Positions 133 through 44,501 of a stretch of 54,828 bases of DNA are shown here, in pieces. The notes under the pieces were generated by a model. It had not been told where the DNA came from. It saw nothing but the letters and a program-made list of their open reading frames with translations, and ran no database searches. Made by a program: the position numbers and the translations under genes. Source of the stretch: Candidatus Hodarchaeota archaeon (GTDB lineage Archaea > Asgardarchaeota > Lokiarchaeia > Sigyniarchaeales > SOKP01); contig JBHLKA010000003.1 of the NCBI GenBank assembly GCA_048887145.1, positions 1 through 54,828 on the forward strand, given 5' to 3'. The stretch's first letter is position 1. Every line of letters begins with the position of its first letter.

Positions 133-1659
133 ATGGCAATACCCCTCCCTGGAACATCGGTAATTCTCGATATCGGGTCTGCCTATACCAAAATAGGCTT
201 TGCTGGCGAGCCAGGTCCGCGTTTTGTCTTTCCCACAATTACTGGAACAGAGAAATATAAAGCTGTAATGGTGGATGTAAGTGCCAGAAATATATATGTC
301 GGAAATGATGCTGCAAAGATGCGTGGAGTTTTAAAGATCAAACGCCCTATCGAAAGGGGAGCAATAATGGATTGGAATGATTTTTATGAAATTTTAAATT
401 ATTGCTTTTATTCACTTTTAAGAATCCCTGATCTTTCTCAGTATCCTGTTTTATATACGGAGCCACCATTTTTACAGAAAGAAACTAAAGAATATATTGC
501 ACGAGTATTATTTGAAACTCACAGAGTGAAAAGCCTAATAATGGTTCCTACGCCTATATTATCCATGTTTAGTGTAGGATTAACTTCAGGTTTAATCCTT
601 GAAAGTGGAGATGGTATTACTTGGATTGTTCCAATCATTAATGGCCAAATTATTGATCAATCCGTACAAAAGTTAACATTAGGAGGTACTGACGTTAATC
701 AATATCTGAAAAATTTGCTAATGAGAGAAGGTATTCATATAGAATCTAGTGCTGTTGATGAAATTATAAAAGATATGAAAGAAAAGAATTGTTATTTCGT
801 ATTGGATCCAAAAAAACCTCCAAAACAAGATGAAAGATTTAATATTGCTATGCCAGATGGTTCTACTATAAATATTCCACATTATATTTTTCATGAGGCA
901 CCTGAAGTACTATTCCAACCTAATTTAGTGGGATATCCGATAAGTAATATTCCTCAAGCTATTATTACAAGTCTACAAGGGATTGATAAATATTATTGGA
1001 GTGAATTATTATCACATATGGTTATTTCAGGTGGAAATTTTTCATACTCTGGTTTTGAAGCAAGGTTAAGAATAGAATTAACAAAGCTACTCCCTCAATT
1101 AGGAAAAATTCCTAAACCGAAAAAACAGAGCCCTAAGGCTAAGGAAAAGACGAATCTAAAGCCAATTGAAGGTTCGAAGAAAAAGAAAGATAATTGTCCT
1201 CACTGTGGAATCCTTGTAGATTTATCTGATGAAAAAGAATTGTGTCCTAATTGTGGTGGTAGAATTGCATTACCAGAGCTTTCTATTAATATAAAAAAAA
1301 CTAGTAAAAAGGCTCCCGTCATTGATGGTAAACTCTTATGTCCTCATTGTGGAAAGGAAATAACTGATATCGACTCTCTCTTTTGTCCATATTGTGGAAA
1401 AAACGTAGAATCACCCGATTTAGAAGAGATATCAAAAAAAGTTATTGATGAAGCACCTCCAGCTAAAGAGTTTGCTGGTTTTTATGATTCCTCAGAGGAA
1501 ATCCTTAGATTCTATGTTCCCGATAATCTTGAATATGCCATTTTTAGTGGAGCAACAATTTTAGGAACACTTCCCTCATTTCAAGGGTTATTTATTACCC
1601 ATGAGCAATTTCTTTCCAATAGTGATCTTTTATACAAAGATATAAGCGAAATTTTTTAG
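133..1659 (+). CDS. Actin-related protein (Asgard ARP) with inserted double zinc-ribbon domain
   Basis: Actin motifs ILDIGSAYTKIGFAG, PIERG, VLYTEPP, LESGDG, KEKNCY, PEVLFQP, VISGG and a C-terminal GATILGTLPSFQGLFIT. An insert carries CPHCG..CPNCGG and CPHCG..CPYCG. Confidence 0.93.
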   Translation: MAIPLPGTSVILDIGSAYTKIGFAGEPGPRFVFPTITGTEKYKAVMVDVSARNIYVGNDAAKMRGVLKIKRPIERGAIMDWNDFYEILNYCFYSLLRIPDLSQYPVLYTEPPFLQKETKEYIARVLFETHRVKSLIMVPTPILSMFSVGLTSGLILESGDGITWIVPIINGQIIDQSVQKLTLGGTDVNQYLKNLLMREGIHIESSAVDEIIKDMKEKNCYFVLDPKKPPKQDERFNIAMPDGSTINIPHYIFHEAPEVLFQPNLVGYPISNIPQAIITSLQGIDKYYWSELLSHMVISGGNFSYSGFEARLRIELTKLLPQLGKIPKPKKQSPKAKEKTNLKPIEGSKKKKDNCPHCGILVDLSDEKELCPNCGGRIALPELSINIKKTSKKAPVIDGKLLCPHCGKEITDIDSLFCPYCGKNVESPDLEEISKKVIDEAPPAKEFAGFYDSSEEILRFYVPDNLEYAIFSGATILGTLPSFQGLFITHEQFLSNSDLLYKDISEIF

Positions 1660-1805: not shown

Positions 1806-2888
1806 TTGAAAAATAAACTACGTAGCTTAACAATAATAACTTTAATGTTTACGGTATTTTTAATATTTATTCCAGTAGTTTCAGCGAAAACGAGACAGAG
1901 TTATTTAGCAGATTTTCTTTTTCAAAACCAAATAGGAAATGAACAATTTGGTAATTCATATAAGGATACCTCATATGCTTTAGAAATAATTAACTATTAC
2001 GATTTGTATGAAACTAAAGTTGATAAACAAACTTTTATTGAGAATTTAGAAATAAAGTTGCAAGAAATGTTTGATAATGGAGAAATTGATCTATATGAGT
2101 TATATTATTTATTAAGTTCATTAGATATCCTAAATGAATTAGACACACTAGATTCAAATTATAAAGATAAGATACATGAATATATTAATCAGACGGAGCA
2201 GATTTCTGGAGGATATGCAATAACAAATACATCTACATCAGCAAATCTGGTCTCAACATATTTGGTATACAATATTTATAGCTTATTAGAAGAACCAATT
2301 TTTAATCAAACAACTCATTTAAATTGGATCTTATCGTGTAATAATACTGATGGCGGTTATGGAGGAAATCAAACATTACCTTCTACAATAGTAACAACCT
2401 ATTGTGCAGTATATTTAGTCAGTAAATTAACTACTGTAGATGATCTTGAAAATAAAACTGCTACTTTAAATTACATATTTTCATTCTATTGTGATGATCC
2501 GCTTGATTCAGATAATTATGGAGGATTTTTCCCTGATTTAATCGCAAACAATGCGTTGTTAAGTAGTACTTATTACTGTATTGAATCTATCGAATTAATT
2601 GATGATTCAACATTAAATCCTCCAGCAACTACAGATTGGATATTGGATCGCCAAAATTTTCAAGACGGAGGATTTGTAGATGATCCTAGTGAGCATGAAG
2701 AAGGACTCTCCTCTATATCTGCAACTTATCATGCATTTAAAATACTATATATATTAAATGCTCTTGATCATTTAAATCAAGATGTCTTTATGGTAGAATT
2801 CAATTATATAATTTTGATAATAGTACTTTCAGTTATAGGTATAATAGCTGTAATAATTGTAATTATTTGGAGAAAAAGAAAATTGTAA
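1806..2888 (+). CDS. Secreted, C-terminally membrane-anchored prenyltransferase/squalene-oxidase repeat (alpha/alpha barrel) protein
   Basis: Signal-peptide-like N-terminus; repeats QISGGYA, NTDGGYG, NYGGFF and QDGGFV each preceded by W/Y-I-x; C-terminal hydrophobic helix followed by RKRKL; several N-x-S/T sequons. Confidence 0.75.
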   Translation: MKNKLRSLTIITLMFTVFLIFIPVVSAKTRQSYLADFLFQNQIGNEQFGNSYKDTSYALEIINYYDLYETKVDKQTFIENLEIKLQEMFDNGEIDLYELYYLLSSLDILNELDTLDSNYKDKIHEYINQTEQISGGYAITNTSTSANLVSTYLVYNIYSLLEEPIFNQTTHLNWILSCNNTDGGYGGNQTLPSTIVTTYCAVYLVSKLTTVDDLENKTATLNYIFSFYCDDPLDSDNYGGFFPDLIANNALLSSTYYCIESIELIDDSTLNPPATTDWILDRQNFQDGGFVDDPSEHEEGLSSISATYHAFKILYILNALDHLNQDVFMVEFNYIILIIVLSVIGIIAVIIVIIWRKRKL

Positions 2889-3972: not shown

Positions 3973-4425
3973 ATGGCTATTCTTGAAGTTGGAATAAATT
4001 TGGGAATACATAATCTTATTGAAATTAAATATTATTCCTCATCAGATAATTTATTAGATCCCAACCTAAGAGCAGGATTTCTTTCTGCATTAGAATCATT
4101 TACACATGAAGTATTTGGAGATGACATAAATGTTGTTTCTTTAGCCTCATTTAAACTTGTATGCTATTGTGATTTAATTGCTTTACCTAATGATCCTTCA
4201 AATAGCCAACCATTATTATCATATGCAATTATTGAAAAAGAAACAGATGCAGAAATAGTTAAAAAACTCTTGGGTCAAATCAATTCACACTTTTTAAATA
4301 GATATTCTCTAAATGATATTTTTTCAAAAAAAGATAAATACTTTAATAAATTTGTTGATAGAATAAACGAAATTCTCGGAGATTTAAGATTAAAAACTGA
4401 AGATCGATTTAGGTCGATTTTTTAA
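3973..4425 (+). CDS. Longin-like domain protein (Asgard type)
   Basis: 150 aa with a beta-beta-alpha-beta-beta-beta-alpha-alpha pattern and the DPNLRAGFLSALESF helix typical of Asgard longin-like proteins. Confidence 0.65.
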   Translation: MAILEVGINLGIHNLIEIKYYSSSDNLLDPNLRAGFLSALESFTHEVFGDDINVVSLASFKLVCYCDLIALPNDPSNSQPLLSYAIIEKETDAEIVKKLLGQINSHFLNRYSLNDIFSKKDKYFNKFVDRINEILGDLRLKTEDRFRSIF

Positions 4426-41558: not shown

Positions 41559-42701
41559 ATGCAAAAAGTTGGTATTGTTGGATATAATCAAGTGAAATTA
41601 TACTCAAATGCTAATTATGGAAGATATGAGATGATATTTGAGGCGGTACGAGGTGCTCTAGACAGCGCAGGTCTCAAAAAGAAAGATATAACGACTGTAG
41701 TCTCTGCTACTAATGATTATTATGATGGTCGAACCATCTCAAATGCACTAACTGTAGAGCCTGGAGGAGGATACTTAGAAGATGAATCTAAGGTTGAAAT
41801 GGATGGTGCTCATGCTGTATTATATGGATTAATGCGGATATTATCTGGTAATCATAGTTTGGCAGTTGTTTGGGGTGGGAGTATGGCATCATGTTTTCCA
41901 TACCATACTGCTCGATTATATGAAACAGATCCTATATGGGAGCGACCATTAGCCTATGTAAATGATATAAGTTCTTCTGGCTTTCAGATGAGAGCTTATA
42001 TGGAAAAATTTGGGGTAAGTGCTGAAGATATTGCTAAAATCGCTGTTAAAAATAGAAAAAATGCTGCAAAAAACCAATTAGCTTTAGCAGAAGCTCAACA
42101 TCCAGATTTAAAAATTAAAGACGTTTTAGAATCTGAGATTTATGCGGATCCAGTAACAGAATTAATGGTTGCTCAACCCTGTGATGGTGTAGCTGCTTTA
42201 TTATTGGCACCAGAAAAACAAGCATTAAAGATTACAGATAATCCAGTTTGGATTATAGGTGTGGGTTATAATCAAGAAACATATTATCTTGGAGAAAGGG
42301 ACTTATCTATTAGTAAATCCATGGAACTTGCAAGTAAAATGGCCTTTAATGCGGCTGGAGTTAAAGATCCTTTAAATGAAATTGATGTAGCTGAGTTATT
42401 TGAAGCATATGCTCATGAAGAGTTAATCCTTAGCGAAGCTATAGGATTTGCCGAAAAAGGTAAAGGGGGAGGTTTGAACTCTGAGATTGGTGGAGATTTG
42501 CCCATTAATCCCTCTGGAGGAGCTTTGGGGGGAAATCCACCCTGTGCAACTGGTTTAATAAGAATTATTGAAGCTGTTAAACAACTAAGAGGGGAGGCAA
42601 ATGGTTATCAAGTTAAGGGCGCCAAGAAAGCTATTGCTTCGGGTCAAATAGGATTGTGTGCCCAAAACAATATATTGTATGTATTAGAGGGAGGTAATTA
42701 A
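41559..42701 (+). CDS. SCP2-type thiolase-fold protein, Ltp4-like
   Basis: ESKVEMDGAH, DGVAALL, DVAEL, INPSGG, ATGLIRIIEA..QLRG. SD GAGGGTGAT upstream of ATG 41559. Confidence 0.88.
   Translation: MQKVGIVGYNQVKLYSNANYGRYEMIFEAVRGALDSAGLKKKDITTVVSATNDYYDGRTISNALTVEPGGGYLEDESKVEMDGAHAVLYGLMRILSGNHSLAVVWGGSMASCFPYHTARLYETDPIWERPLAYVNDISSSGFQMRAYMEKFGVSAEDIAKIAVKNRKNAAKNQLALAEAQHPDLKIKDVLESEIYADPVTELMVAQPCDGVAALLLAPEKQALKITDNPVWIIGVGYNQETYYLGERDLSISKSMELASKMAFNAAGVKDPLNEIDVAELFEAYAHEELILSEAIGFAEKGKGGGLNSEIGGDLPINPSGGALGGNPPCATGLIRIIEAVKQLRGEANGYQVKGAKKAIASGQIGLCAQNNILYVLEGGN
42690..42695 (+). promoter_or_regulatory. Shine-Dalgarno site
   Basis: GGAGGT, 8 nt upstream of ATG 42704. Confidence 0.7.
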
Positions 42702-42703
42702 AA

Positions 42704-43951
42704 ATGGGAAGACAAGTTTGTGTAGCAAGTGCAGGGTTTAGTGAGCATGCTTCGAAGCGCTCAGATGTAAACATGCCGGAGCTAGTTAGTGAAGCAATAG
42801 AAGATTGTTTAAAAAGAGTTCCAAGTCTTGACATTAAAGATATTGATGCTTTTGTAAATGGGAATATGCCTGCGTTTGAAGGATCAAATATTCCTGAATT
42901 ATGGATGACAGATTGGATGGGTGCCAGAAATAAACCATTACTGCGAGTCACTACAGGAGGTACTACAGGTGGTTCAGTAGCTATTGCTGGATATTACTCG
43001 GTTGCTGCTGGGATACCTGGTGTTGATACTGTGTTAGCTATCGCTTTTGAACAGCAATCTCAAGGTGATACAAGTGTTGGGCTTGCTAGTGTAGCTTATG
43101 GAGAAATATCAGTCATGAACTCACTAGGTATTCCTTATGATCAATTAACACTACTTCTATCTGGTGGTGCTGCTATAGGAATTGCTTCTTATCAAGCCAC
43201 TAATTATATGCGTAAAAGCAAGATTACTGAAGAAGATTTAGCTAGAGTTGTTGTTCAAAATAGGCATAATGCTGCAAAAACATGGTGGGCTCATCTTAAA
43301 ATGCCTGATCTCACGATTGAGGATGTTTTAGATACACCCTATATTTCGTATCCTTTAAGATATGGAATGGTTTGTCCAGCATCCGATGGAGCATGCGCAA
43401 TGCTATTTACAACCGAAGAAAAAGCGAAAAGTTTGTGTGACATTCCCGTTTATGTAAATGGTGTAGGCAGTGTAGCAAATGAGACAGCTCTCATTGGGTA
43501 TGGGGGTAGTGGATCGGGGCAATTAGACCTATCTGAACAATTGGGTGCTCAAAAAACTTCTGAAATAGCTTTTAAGCAAGCAGGTATTCGTTTTCCGAGA
43601 AAAGAAGTTGATTATGCTGAAGTTTATTCACCATTTCCAAACCAAGAACTTATGTGGGTTGAAAAACTGGGTCTATTTGAAGAAAACACCTCGCCAAAAA
43701 TGTACGAAACAGGAGTAACCGCTTTAAATGGTGAATTGCCCATCAATTGTTCAGGAGGTGTTAATTCTACAAATGCCATAGGAGCCTCAGCATTAGAAAG
43801 ACCCGCTGAAGCAGCTTTACAAATTATGGGAAAGGCTAGTAATCAAGTCCCTAAAACAGTACATACGTCACTGGGACATGGATGGGGGGGTTATGTTAAC
43901 TTAGTCACAATGATGGTAATGGCTGATGAACCAGCTAGAAAATATAAATAA
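42704..43951 (+). CDS. SCP2-type thiolase-fold protein, Ltp3-like
   Basis: KPLLRVTTGGTTGGS, CPASDGACA, AEVYSPF, INCSGG, AIGASAL, HGWGG. Confidence 0.88.
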   Translation: MGRQVCVASAGFSEHASKRSDVNMPELVSEAIEDCLKRVPSLDIKDIDAFVNGNMPAFEGSNIPELWMTDWMGARNKPLLRVTTGGTTGGSVAIAGYYSVAAGIPGVDTVLAIAFEQQSQGDTSVGLASVAYGEISVMNSLGIPYDQLTLLLSGGAAIGIASYQATNYMRKSKITEEDLARVVVQNRHNAAKTWWAHLKMPDLTIEDVLDTPYISYPLRYGMVCPASDGACAMLFTTEEKAKSLCDIPVYVNGVGSVANETALIGYGGSGSGQLDLSEQLGAQKTSEIAFKQAGIRFPRKEVDYAEVYSPFPNQELMWVEKLGLFEENTSPKMYETGVTALNGELPINCSGGVNSTNAIGASALERPAEAALQIMGKASNQVPKTVHTSLGHGWGGYVNLVTMMVMADEPARKYK

Positions 43952-43956
43952 AAGAT

Positions 43957-43962
43957 GGAGGT
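43957..43962 (+). promoter_or_regulatory. Shine-Dalgarno site
   Basis: GGAGGT, 8 nt upstream of ATG 43971. Confidence 0.7.
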
Positions 43963-43970
43963 AATATAAA

Positions 43971-44501
43971 ATGTCTAAAAGAACGTTAAGAAAGTCAATG
44001 GAATATATTAAAAAAGAATATATTAGAACAAGAACCATACCAGCAAGTTGGTATTTATCTAGCTATAAATTTAAATTTAATATTACTCATATGAAACCAT
44101 TTCTTGATAAATTAAAGCAGAAGAAGTTAGTTGGGCTACAATGTTCAAGTTGTAATAGGATTTATTTTCCACCACGCCAAATTTGTGGCAAGTGTCTAGT
44201 GAAACCTGATAGGTGGGTCGATTTGCGTGAAACTGGGAGAGTTGCTTCATTCACCGCAACTTATTTAAAGGATCCCGAAACTGGTAAAGTTTTAGAACGA
44301 CCTATTGTGTGTGCTCAATTAGATGGGGCGGATACTTCCTATCCAGCGCAATTGGATCCTGATATTGAATTTAAAGATACTTACATCGGTATGCCCATAA
44401 AGGTTCATTGGGCAGAGGATATTAAGGGTGGATTAATGGATATCGAATATTATGATCCTATTGAAGACAATGCTAAAGATTTACAACCTAAAGAGGATTA
44501 A
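43971..44501 (+). CDS. DUF35 Zn-ribbon/OB-fold protein
   Basis: GLQCSSC..FPPRQICGKC, GRVASFT, LDGAD, IGMPIKVHW. Confidence 0.92.
   Translation: MSKRTLRKSMEYIKKEYIRTRTIPASWYLSSYKFKFNITHMKPFLDKLKQKKLVGLQCSSCNRIYFPPRQICGKCLVKPDRWVDLRETGRVASFTATYLKDPETGKVLERPIVCAQLDGADTSYPAQLDPDIEFKDTYIGMPIKVHWAEDIKGGLMDIEYYDPIEDNAKDLQPKED

Follow-up and report, generated by a model that had tools for sequence, protein, structure and literature searches.

What does a pair of zinc ribbons do in the middle of an actin fold, and do the two really belong to one protein? The question is raised by a gene near the start of a 54,828-nucleotide stretch of Asgard archaeal DNA (positions 1 to 54,828 of the forward strand of contig JBHLKA010000003.1 in GenBank assembly GCA_048887145.1, from a Candidatus Hodarchaeota archaeon of the order Sigyniarchaeales), which is referred to here, at its full length, as the window. 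The gene encodes an actin-family protein, designated ZnR-ARP (zinc-ribbon actin paralogue), into which two predicted zinc ribbons are inserted. Previous work has centered on Lokiactin, profilins, and gelsolins, and other actin paralogues only appear in trees. As a possible regulator or anchor of archaeal actin, ZnR-ARP is a concrete candidate that can be put to the test.

An actin fold interrupted by two zinc ribbons

The reading frame of the gene is open throughout and begins 132 bases from the contig end (Table 1). Its actin core includes the two phosphate loops (D13-G15-S16..K20 and E157-G159-D160-G161), the glycine pair GG300-301, and an equivalent of the DNase I-binding loop (D-loop) at residues 37 to 52. 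The Pfam model Actin (PF00022) matched residues 8 to 324 with 223.5 bits (cut-off, 27), covering profile positions 5 to 357 of 410, and a phmmer comparison with all PDB chains aligned residues 6 to 326 and 458/459 to 495 to actin, with nothing aligned between them. The best match was 9wc4_A ("HC1 actin"; E value, 2.3e-68), and many actins and Arp1 scored at about 1e-64. In a MAFFT alignment with 24 actin-like sequences, the insert (~132 amino acids; residues 325 to 456) separates the residues that correspond to actin M325 and K326; this site is in subdomain 3, where actin has residues 325 to 328. The preliminary description of this DNA, made from the letters alone, had placed an actin-related protein (ARP) with a double zinc-ribbon insertion at positions 1096 to 1500, corresponding to residues 322 to 456. 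The insert was found there; all of the elements quoted (CPHCG..CPNCGG, CPHCG..CPYCG, the Lys-rich and acidic linkers, and LRFYVPDNLEYAIF) are present in the translation, and the second phmmer segment agrees with the description in that the actin C terminus resumes after the insert. The observation of an actin-family protein with an inserted zinc-ribbon pair is confirmed.

The insert contains two CxxC..CxxC units, as in a double zinc ribbon. The Pfam models Zn_ribbon_3, DZR, and Zn_Ribbon_1 all scored over their cut-offs at residues 355 to 378 and 403 to 424. DZR (PF12773; cut-off, 27.3) reached 30.9 bits with the whole protein and 33.6 bits with the insert alone, and Zn_ribbon_3 (PF13248; cut-off, 27) reached 39.4 and 45.1 bits, respectively; the insert also scored above the cut-off of DUF7575. 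DZR, Zn_ribbon_3, and DUF7575 are Pfam families without a defined function. In ZnR-ARP, the double ribbon is spliced into the middle of the actin fold rather than being found alone or at a terminus. Both ends of the insert are conserved. The first linker starts with a conserved IPKP and is otherwise of low confidence in the structure model, and E446-F447 near the end of the return linker is invariant (27/27 rows of alignment A1).

An AlphaFold2 (AF2) model built with 150 alignment rows had a mean predicted local distance difference test score (pLDDT) of 82.5 and a predicted template modeling score of 0.73; it superseded a poor model built with 27 close relatives only (pLDDT, 64.5). The actin core of the 150-row model is mostly above 90, the ribbons are at about 70, and residues 333 to 348, 381 to 391, and 429 to 442 fall below 50. 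In this model, the zinc ribbons look flexibly tethered, and short strands predicted at the two conserved insert ends (residues 327 to 329 and 447 to 450) may form a stalk. A structure comparison with 48,161 solved chains (VIA-align) gave actin 4pl7_A as the best match (Z, 44.9; root mean square deviation, 1.9 Å over 346 residues; 34% identity). Further matches included Arp3 (Z, 39.9; 23% identity), Arp4 (Z, 37 to 39; 20 to 22%), Arp6 (Z, 32 to 36; 21 to 22%), Arp8 (Z, 34; 18%), Arp5 (Z, 33.7 to 33.8; 20 to 22%), crenactin (Z, 32.6; 19%), and MreB (Z, 27.7; 15%). The four-subdomain actin fold is thus shown, at the level of the model, to be intact despite the insert, and the loss of fold that the preliminary description had named as fatal to its claim was not seen.

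Table 1 Features of the ZnR-ARP gene and of two genes downstream of it (cysteine counts are from alignment A2, which holds 126 family rows and underlies all residue counts given below unless another alignment is named)
Feature	Positions	Strand	Residues	Remarks
Whole ZnR-ARP gene	133-1659	+		ORF (open reading frame), 508 codons plus stop
Actin core	133-1104	+	1-324	pLDDT mostly >90
First linker	1105-1194	+	325-354	Lys-rich in the window protein
Zinc ribbon 1	1195-1254	+	355-374	C355, C358, C371, C374; Cys in 126/126
Inter-ribbon linker	1255-1338	+	375-402	Variable; pLDDT <50 at 381-391
Zinc ribbon 2	1339-1398	+	403-422	C403, C406, C418, C421; Cys in 124/126
Acidic return linker	1399-1500	+	423-456	Strand modeled at 447-450
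Resumed actin C terminus	1501-1656	+	457-508	Corresponds to actin K326 to end
Alpha/alpha-toroid neighbor	1806-2888	+		360 aa (amino acids); signal-peptide-like N terminus; C-terminal membrane helix
ORF without Pfam match	3973-4425	+		150 aa; between FolD and DRG-type GTPase (MMR_HSR1 + TGS); in 73/87 loci

An insert of this kind could also arise from an assembly chimera or a decaying gene, in which case it would not be part of a functional protein. The source genome is fragmented (253 contigs; 82.5% complete), and the gene lies close to a contig end. However, the frame is open and both junctions are bridged in three runs. The 5' junction is crossed by a 333-base Logan contig (positions 914 to 1246; 0 differences) in runs X1, X2, and X3, and the 3' junction is crossed by contigs covering positions 1394 to 1568 (X1; 0 differences), 1386 to 1568 (X2), and 1386 to 1538 (X3). 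These three runs belong to one study and may be the source sample. In run X4, from another study, a 2,757-base contig of a relative covers positions 1 to 1528 with 91 differences and no gaps (~94% identity), crossing the 5' junction and the entire insert. An X3 contig that skips positions 1239 to 1591 was considered as an insert-less allele and rejected, as it has only 26 letters on its shorter side; it is taken as a cross-match between the two ribbons or as a piece of another organism.

The relatives lead to the same conclusion. From 5.8 billion proteins, a word-indexed search recovered 305 relatives, and 119 of the 120 listed cluster representatives carry precomputed Actin and zinc-ribbon Pfam domains; the remaining one (P0078) is cut at its N terminus, and both ribbons are visible in its alignment. 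Of 126 stretches matched in a scan of one genome per species, 116 encode a relative; 80 loci were kept, each spanning the complete protein or almost all of it, at 60 to 93% identity. A HMMER search of 1.84 billion representatives at 50% identity added six insert-bearing proteins with 39 to 57% identity (P0122, P0123, P0124, P0126, P0127, and P0128). Besides insert-bearing matches and fragments, the next matches in that search were actin-like proteins of ~35% identity, those inspected being tandem actins and actin fusions, and no insert-less close relative (i.e., above ~39% identity) was found among the 1.84 billion representatives. The second ribbon's cysteines are absent from two one-ribbon forms among the aligned rows. 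With the same architecture in 80 independent loci, the insert at the same site in 126/126 relatives, and an insert that is clearly constrained, we rejected the misassembly and pseudogene readings, which we regard as extremely improbable. The absence of the insert from close homologs and of spanning reads, which the preliminary description had also held capable of overturning its claim, is contradicted by these results.

Distribution, phylogeny, and published relatives

To place the gene within the phylum, 400 genomes were queried with residues 322 to 508 and with a profile built for that region from seven sequences. Strong full-length matches were confined to the order to which the window belongs, and all four of its families had matches: the profile matched 128/134 genomes of family f1 (132/134 with the single-sequence query), 1/1 of f2, 13/14 of f3, and, weakly, 4/4 of f4. 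All four f4 genomes have a one-ribbon form (ORFs of 489 to 532 aa, 66 to 70% identical to P0127). Profile matches outside the order had E values of 1e-8 to 1e-12 and could reflect the actin C terminus or unrelated ribbons; one such genome that was probed (G129) has only a plain 378-aa actin. Thus, each of the four families of this Asgard order keeps an insert that was first noticed in one protein, and these sequence comparisons show ZnR-ARP to be a lineage-specific actin paralogue. Some record labels are at odds with this distribution. The titles of L010, L012, L020, L053, L074, L075, and others read Odin-, Hermod-, Thor-, or Hodarchaeota, and these labels look inconsistent, since the strong matches group in a single order. 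A record titled "Candidatus Nanopelagicaceae bacterium" (L033; DATKTW010000100.1) encodes a 70%-identical ZnR-ARP with flanking genes as in the Asgard loci; its bin is probably mislabeled or contaminated.

A phylogenetic tree of 68 rows and 367 columns was built by a quick method from sequences other than named ARPs, with the insert columns excluded and with the Shimodaira-Hasegawa-like approximate likelihood ratio test (SH-aLRT) as the only support measure. In this tree, all 32 rows of ZnR-ARP group in a single clade (SH-aLRT, 100; stem, 0.75), apart from the genome's own Lokiactin, which groups with actin-like representatives. The one-ribbon P0127 is sister to all other ZnR-ARP rows. L087, also with one ribbon, branches from within the two-ribbon forms, pointing to a secondary ribbon loss in L087. 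Counted from the tree topology, an ancestor with one ribbon and an ancestor with two each require two changes. The complete Lokiactin of the same genome is 36% identical to the window protein and keeps Q137 and H161 of actin. A second Lokiactin copy is split across two contig ends, and the genome has two further divergent actin homologs of 389 and 383 aa. The actin loci of this genome (G000) are on contigs C164 and C145 (L002 and L006), C5 (L001), C42 (L003), and C50 (L005); the search match to the C50 homolog ran through one TAA.

One member of the family has already been published. The protein read from L087 is identical to UYP44711.1 of Candidatus Lokiarchaeum ossiferum, an orthologue that lies within the ZnR-ARP clade and has the same flanking genes as the window gene. 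It differs from the window protein in having ribbon 1 only, a length of 499 aa, and a longer acidic linker, and the two are 38% identical. In its records, UYP44711.1 is labeled "hypothetical protein" and, in UniRef, "Actin-related protein"; other members are labeled "zinc ribbon domain-containing protein," "actin-related protein," or "centractin." According to the main text of the study describing the organism, UYP44711.1 is one of three "ARPs" of Ca. L. ossiferum and was placed among "Asgard archaeal and eukaryotic ARPs" (Rodrigues-Oliveira et al. 2022, PMC9834061). The same text reports reverse transcription-quantitative PCR with primers for UYP44711.1, in which Lokiactin transcripts were severalfold higher (PMC9834061). 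Neither "zinc" nor "ribbon" appears anywhere in that main text. For the window gene, no RNA holder is listed. In full-text searches of the literature covering main articles, no paper was found that describes a zinc ribbon within an actin homolog of Asgard archaea; domain tables of orthologous groups may list it. The family is therefore already catalogued, with one member published as an ARP; its insert, distribution, and altered catalytic site were not found in print. ZnR-ARP is near-universal in the order, to which cultured species belong, and we found its type of insert described for no actin-family protein. The presence of an orthologue in cultured Ca. L. ossiferum makes localization and biochemistry feasible now.

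The name ARP applies only loosely. ZnR-ARP shares with Arp3, Arp5, Arp8, and Arp11 the principle of an actin-fold scaffold with lineage-specific insertions that make interaction surfaces, and its structural matches to Arp3, Arp4, Arp5, and Arp8 are strong. An inserted zinc ribbon is not known from any ARP of solved structure. The identity of ZnR-ARP to eukaryotic ARPs is only 18 to 26%, lower than the 34% to actin, and thus no orthology to any ARP class is shown; Arp1 chains score about as actin does in phmmer (E value, 7e-64). As judged from these comparisons, the protein appears to be a divergent actin paralogue. The analogy to nuclear ARPs offered in the preliminary description found no support, given the separate clade and the 18 to 24% identity to the solved Arp4, Arp5, Arp6, Arp8, and Arp7/9 chains versus 34% to actin.

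Nucleotide site, contact surfaces, and predicted role

ZnR-ARP has the same four-subdomain fold, phosphate loops, and C-terminal helix region as Lokiactin and eukaryotic actin and a D-loop of similar length. It alone has the two-ribbon insert at 325/326 and substitutions at Q137, H161, and D154, and in the tree it stands outside the Lokiactin group, in a separate long-stemmed clade. The nucleotide-binding residues D13, G15, K20, G159, G161, E217, G300, and G301 are each present in 126/126 rows, K216 is present in 125/126, and D160 is present in 110/126. In actin, Q137 and H161 are the residues that place and activate the water used in hydrolysis. The equivalent of Q137 (T140 in the window protein) is T in 104 rows, S in 20, and A in 2, and that of H161 (W164) is W in 117/126. 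For the latter position, the list of the four commonest residues continues with T (3), F (2), and Y (1) and does not contain H; the position of actin D154 is E in 122/126. ZnR-ARP thus lacks the Gln137/His161 pair by which hydrolyzing, treadmilling actins are recognized. Because the nucleotide motifs are kept and the Q137 and H161 equivalents are replaced, we infer that the protein binds ATP with slow or no hydrolysis.

The surfaces for subunit contacts are also conserved. The hydrophobic D-loop residues M46, V47, and V49 are found in 120, 116, and 118 of the 126 rows, and F146, L477, and F483 of the cleft that receives the D-loop are found in 124, 125, and 123 rows, respectively; the loops that make up the D-loop and the hydrophobic plug have nearly the same length as in actin. 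Since these residues are kept, actin-type longitudinal contacts are most likely still made. The insertion point adjoins actin residues 322 to 325, which we take to be a longitudinal contact on the barbed-end face, and K326 and K328, just after this point, presumably face outward toward tropomyosin on F-actin. Such a position would allow the insert either to obstruct the next subunit or simply to project from a filament.

The partner of the ribbons was approached through charge, domain matches, and motifs. The net charge of the first linker ranges from -10 to +10 across the 126 members (-8 in L087 and -10 in P0124). The ribbons range from neutral to slightly acidic, with median charges of -2 for ribbon 1 and -1 for ribbon 2. 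Most return linkers are acidic, with a median of -3 and a lowest value of -18. The lack of conserved basicity in the linker, together with the neutral or acidic ribbons, argues against charge-based binding of nucleic acids or membranes as a conserved function, and the sequence evidence leans toward a partner protein rather than a nucleic acid. Of the preliminary description's proposal of an actin-fold scaffold with a nucleic-acid- or protein-binding module, the scaffold with conserved tandem ribbons in subdomain 3 stands, and nucleic-acid binding found no support. Weak Pfam matches to ribbons related to nucleic acids (NOB1, TFIIB-type, and YacG) were all below or near their cut-offs. A match to zf_UBZ (27.2 bits with the insert alone and 18.6 bits with the whole protein; cut-off, 25.6) was rejected as a ubiquitin-binding finger, as it spans a single knuckle plus the 10 residues that follow. 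In a phmmer search of PDB, the two-ribbon region gave only matches at the level of the Cys knuckles (17 sequences at E values up to 10; best, 0.0039), and querying the ESM Atlas with the insert produced nothing usable. A shared-word search for stand-alone short relatives, which distant relatives may escape, found only one protein, itself a partial member of the ZnR-ARP family. Within the same genome, 16 places match the ribbon module at an E value of ≤0.01, and the available text of a published survey reports a Zn-ribbon family in all Asgard genomes (10.1101/2020.10.19.343400). Taken together, these two results suggest that the insert was probably recruited from a common and promiscuous local building block.

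In family f3, the return linkers of L087, L088, L090, P0126, and P0128 contain a conserved basic KEKKL[LI]KKT (MLKKV in P0128) followed by acidic-aromatic residues, a stretch that resembles the LKKT/V signature of WH2 and thymosin motifs. A strict [LIVM][LIVM]KK[TV] pattern occurs in the return linker of 8/126 members, including these five; the window protein has ISKKV, outside the pattern. No WH2 or thymosin Pfam family was among the matches listed for six family members at E values up to 10 (the best 25 matches for four of them).

These results suggest a role, to which we give an even chance, as an ATP-binding, poorly hydrolyzing accessory or end subunit of the Lokiactin cytoskeleton whose tethered ribbons act as an adaptor. 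ZnR-ARP would bind ATP/Mg and, hydrolyzing it poorly, would be a stable structural subunit rather than a treadmilling one. Its hydrophobic D-loop (V45-M46-V47 and V49) and cleft (F146, L477, and F483) would make contacts with Lokiactin or, in short oligomers, with itself. The insert, leaving the core at the rim of the barbed-end face, would limit or modify subunit addition, and the two tethered ribbons would be held out to recruit or anchor a partner. The protein would thus be a low-abundance subunit with a built-in docking module; the accessory role is suggested because transcripts of the one-ribbon orthologue UYP44711.1 were below those of Lokiactin in the published main text cited above. 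Several points weigh against this proposal. The conserved D-loop and cleft would suit a homopolymer equally well, and the kept cleft residues could instead serve profilin- or gelsolin-type binders. A lower transcript level is no proof of an accessory role, and the insert may or may not clash with a neighboring subunit. In addition, the hydrolytic roles of Q137 and H161 and the position of residues 322 to 328 at the longitudinal contact and on the tropomyosin-facing surface are taken from the actin literature.

The same D-loop and cleft, with the near-actin length of the D-loop and plug loops, would also fit an independent filament-forming actin whose ribbons project at regular spacing as docking sites for cargo, membrane, or DNA positioning, and the presence of the gene in nearly all genomes of the order agrees with such a filament. 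If K326 and K328 face outward, as assumed above, an insert at 325/326 need not break it. This is the main alternative but a rather unlikely one, as it sits poorly with the replacement of the catalytic Q137 and H161 equivalents, which is unusual for dynamic filament formers, with the lower transcript level of the L. ossiferum orthologue as given in that main text, and with an insert that begins beside the presumed 322-325 contact. Alternatively, ZnR-ARP might be a monomeric chromatin- or RNA-associated ARP that binds nucleic acid through its ribbons and basic linker, by analogy with the nuclear Arp4, Arp5, and Arp8. Zinc ribbons commonly bind nucleic acid, the first linker of the window protein is very rich in Lys, the loss of catalytic residues resembles that of structural ARPs, and the weak NOB1, TFIIB-type, and YacG matches would fit. 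However, neither the charge of the linker and ribbons across the family nor the low identity to the nuclear ARP chains agrees with this role, no chromatin family of Pfam was found in the neighbors scanned, and a D-loop this conserved would not be expected of a buried monomeric ARP; we regard it as unlikely.

The insert may instead be mainly regulatory, a zinc or redox switch or an autoinhibitory acidic linker (E-F/Y) that folds onto the core and gates the protein's own contacts without any partner. Eight invariant cysteines, the invariant E446-F447, and the two strands modeled next to the core are compatible with such a switch, and thiol chemistry would be relevant in hosts that dwell in anaerobic sediment. 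Yet CxxC..CxxC ribbons such as these generally serve as structural zinc sites, the two long linkers modeled at low confidence resemble tethers rather than a packed regulatory domain, and the persistence of one-ribbon forms in two lineages is easier to fit with a modular adaptor, so that we find this explanation improbable. A more specific proposal, likewise a long shot, is that ZnR-ARP is a filament-end anchor, i.e., a subunit that its insert on the barbed-end face makes terminal in Lokiactin filaments and whose ribbons tie the filament end to a membrane or surface complex, perhaps with the toroid protein encoded downstream (Table 1). In a bolder variant for f3, KEKKL[LI]KKT and the acidic-aromatic residues would serve as a WH2-plus-acidic element within the protein itself, which would then be a nucleator made of a single polypeptide. 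If true, the end anchor would represent a prokaryotic forerunner of the cytoskeleton-to-surface coupling needed for the protrusions and the crawling reported from cultured Asgard archaea.

Gene neighborhood and other features of the window

The order of genes around ZnR-ARP is conserved in 86 loci and the window: a metallo-beta-lactamase-fold gene, a 136-aa protein with a weak helix-turn-helix match, a CBS-pair protein, and ZnR-ARP, and then, downstream, an alpha/alpha-toroid membrane protein, FolD, a 150-aa protein, and a DRG-type GTPase. The conserved neighbors scanned had no Pfam match to chromatin families. The toroid protein contains a prenyltransferase-type domain (PF00432; 76.7 bits) and ends in RKRKL after its membrane helix; from these features, it is probably a surface protein. 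Its gene lies downstream of ZnR-ARP in 85/87 loci and, according to the ORF calls, is the first downstream ORF in 81 of them; both remaining loci stop at the ZnR-ARP gene. It is also downstream in L087 to L092 and in 3/4 f4 loci, where ZnR-ARP is 36 to 39% identical to the window protein (toroid neighbor loci: L007 to L092 and L101 to L103). The spacer between the two genes is 146 bases long and AT-rich, which allows separate transcription. Because FolD and the DRG-type GTPase travel in the block too, the conserved gene order is a lead to a coupling of ZnR-ARP with the toroid protein and not evidence for it; the block may only reflect slow rearrangement.

As the window contains no match to an Rfam family at or above the gathering score, a rise in G+C content at positions 42001 to 44000 is not an rRNA or tRNA cluster. 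The G+C content of this segment is 0.387, compared with 0.24 to 0.32 elsewhere, and its GC skew is +0.23.

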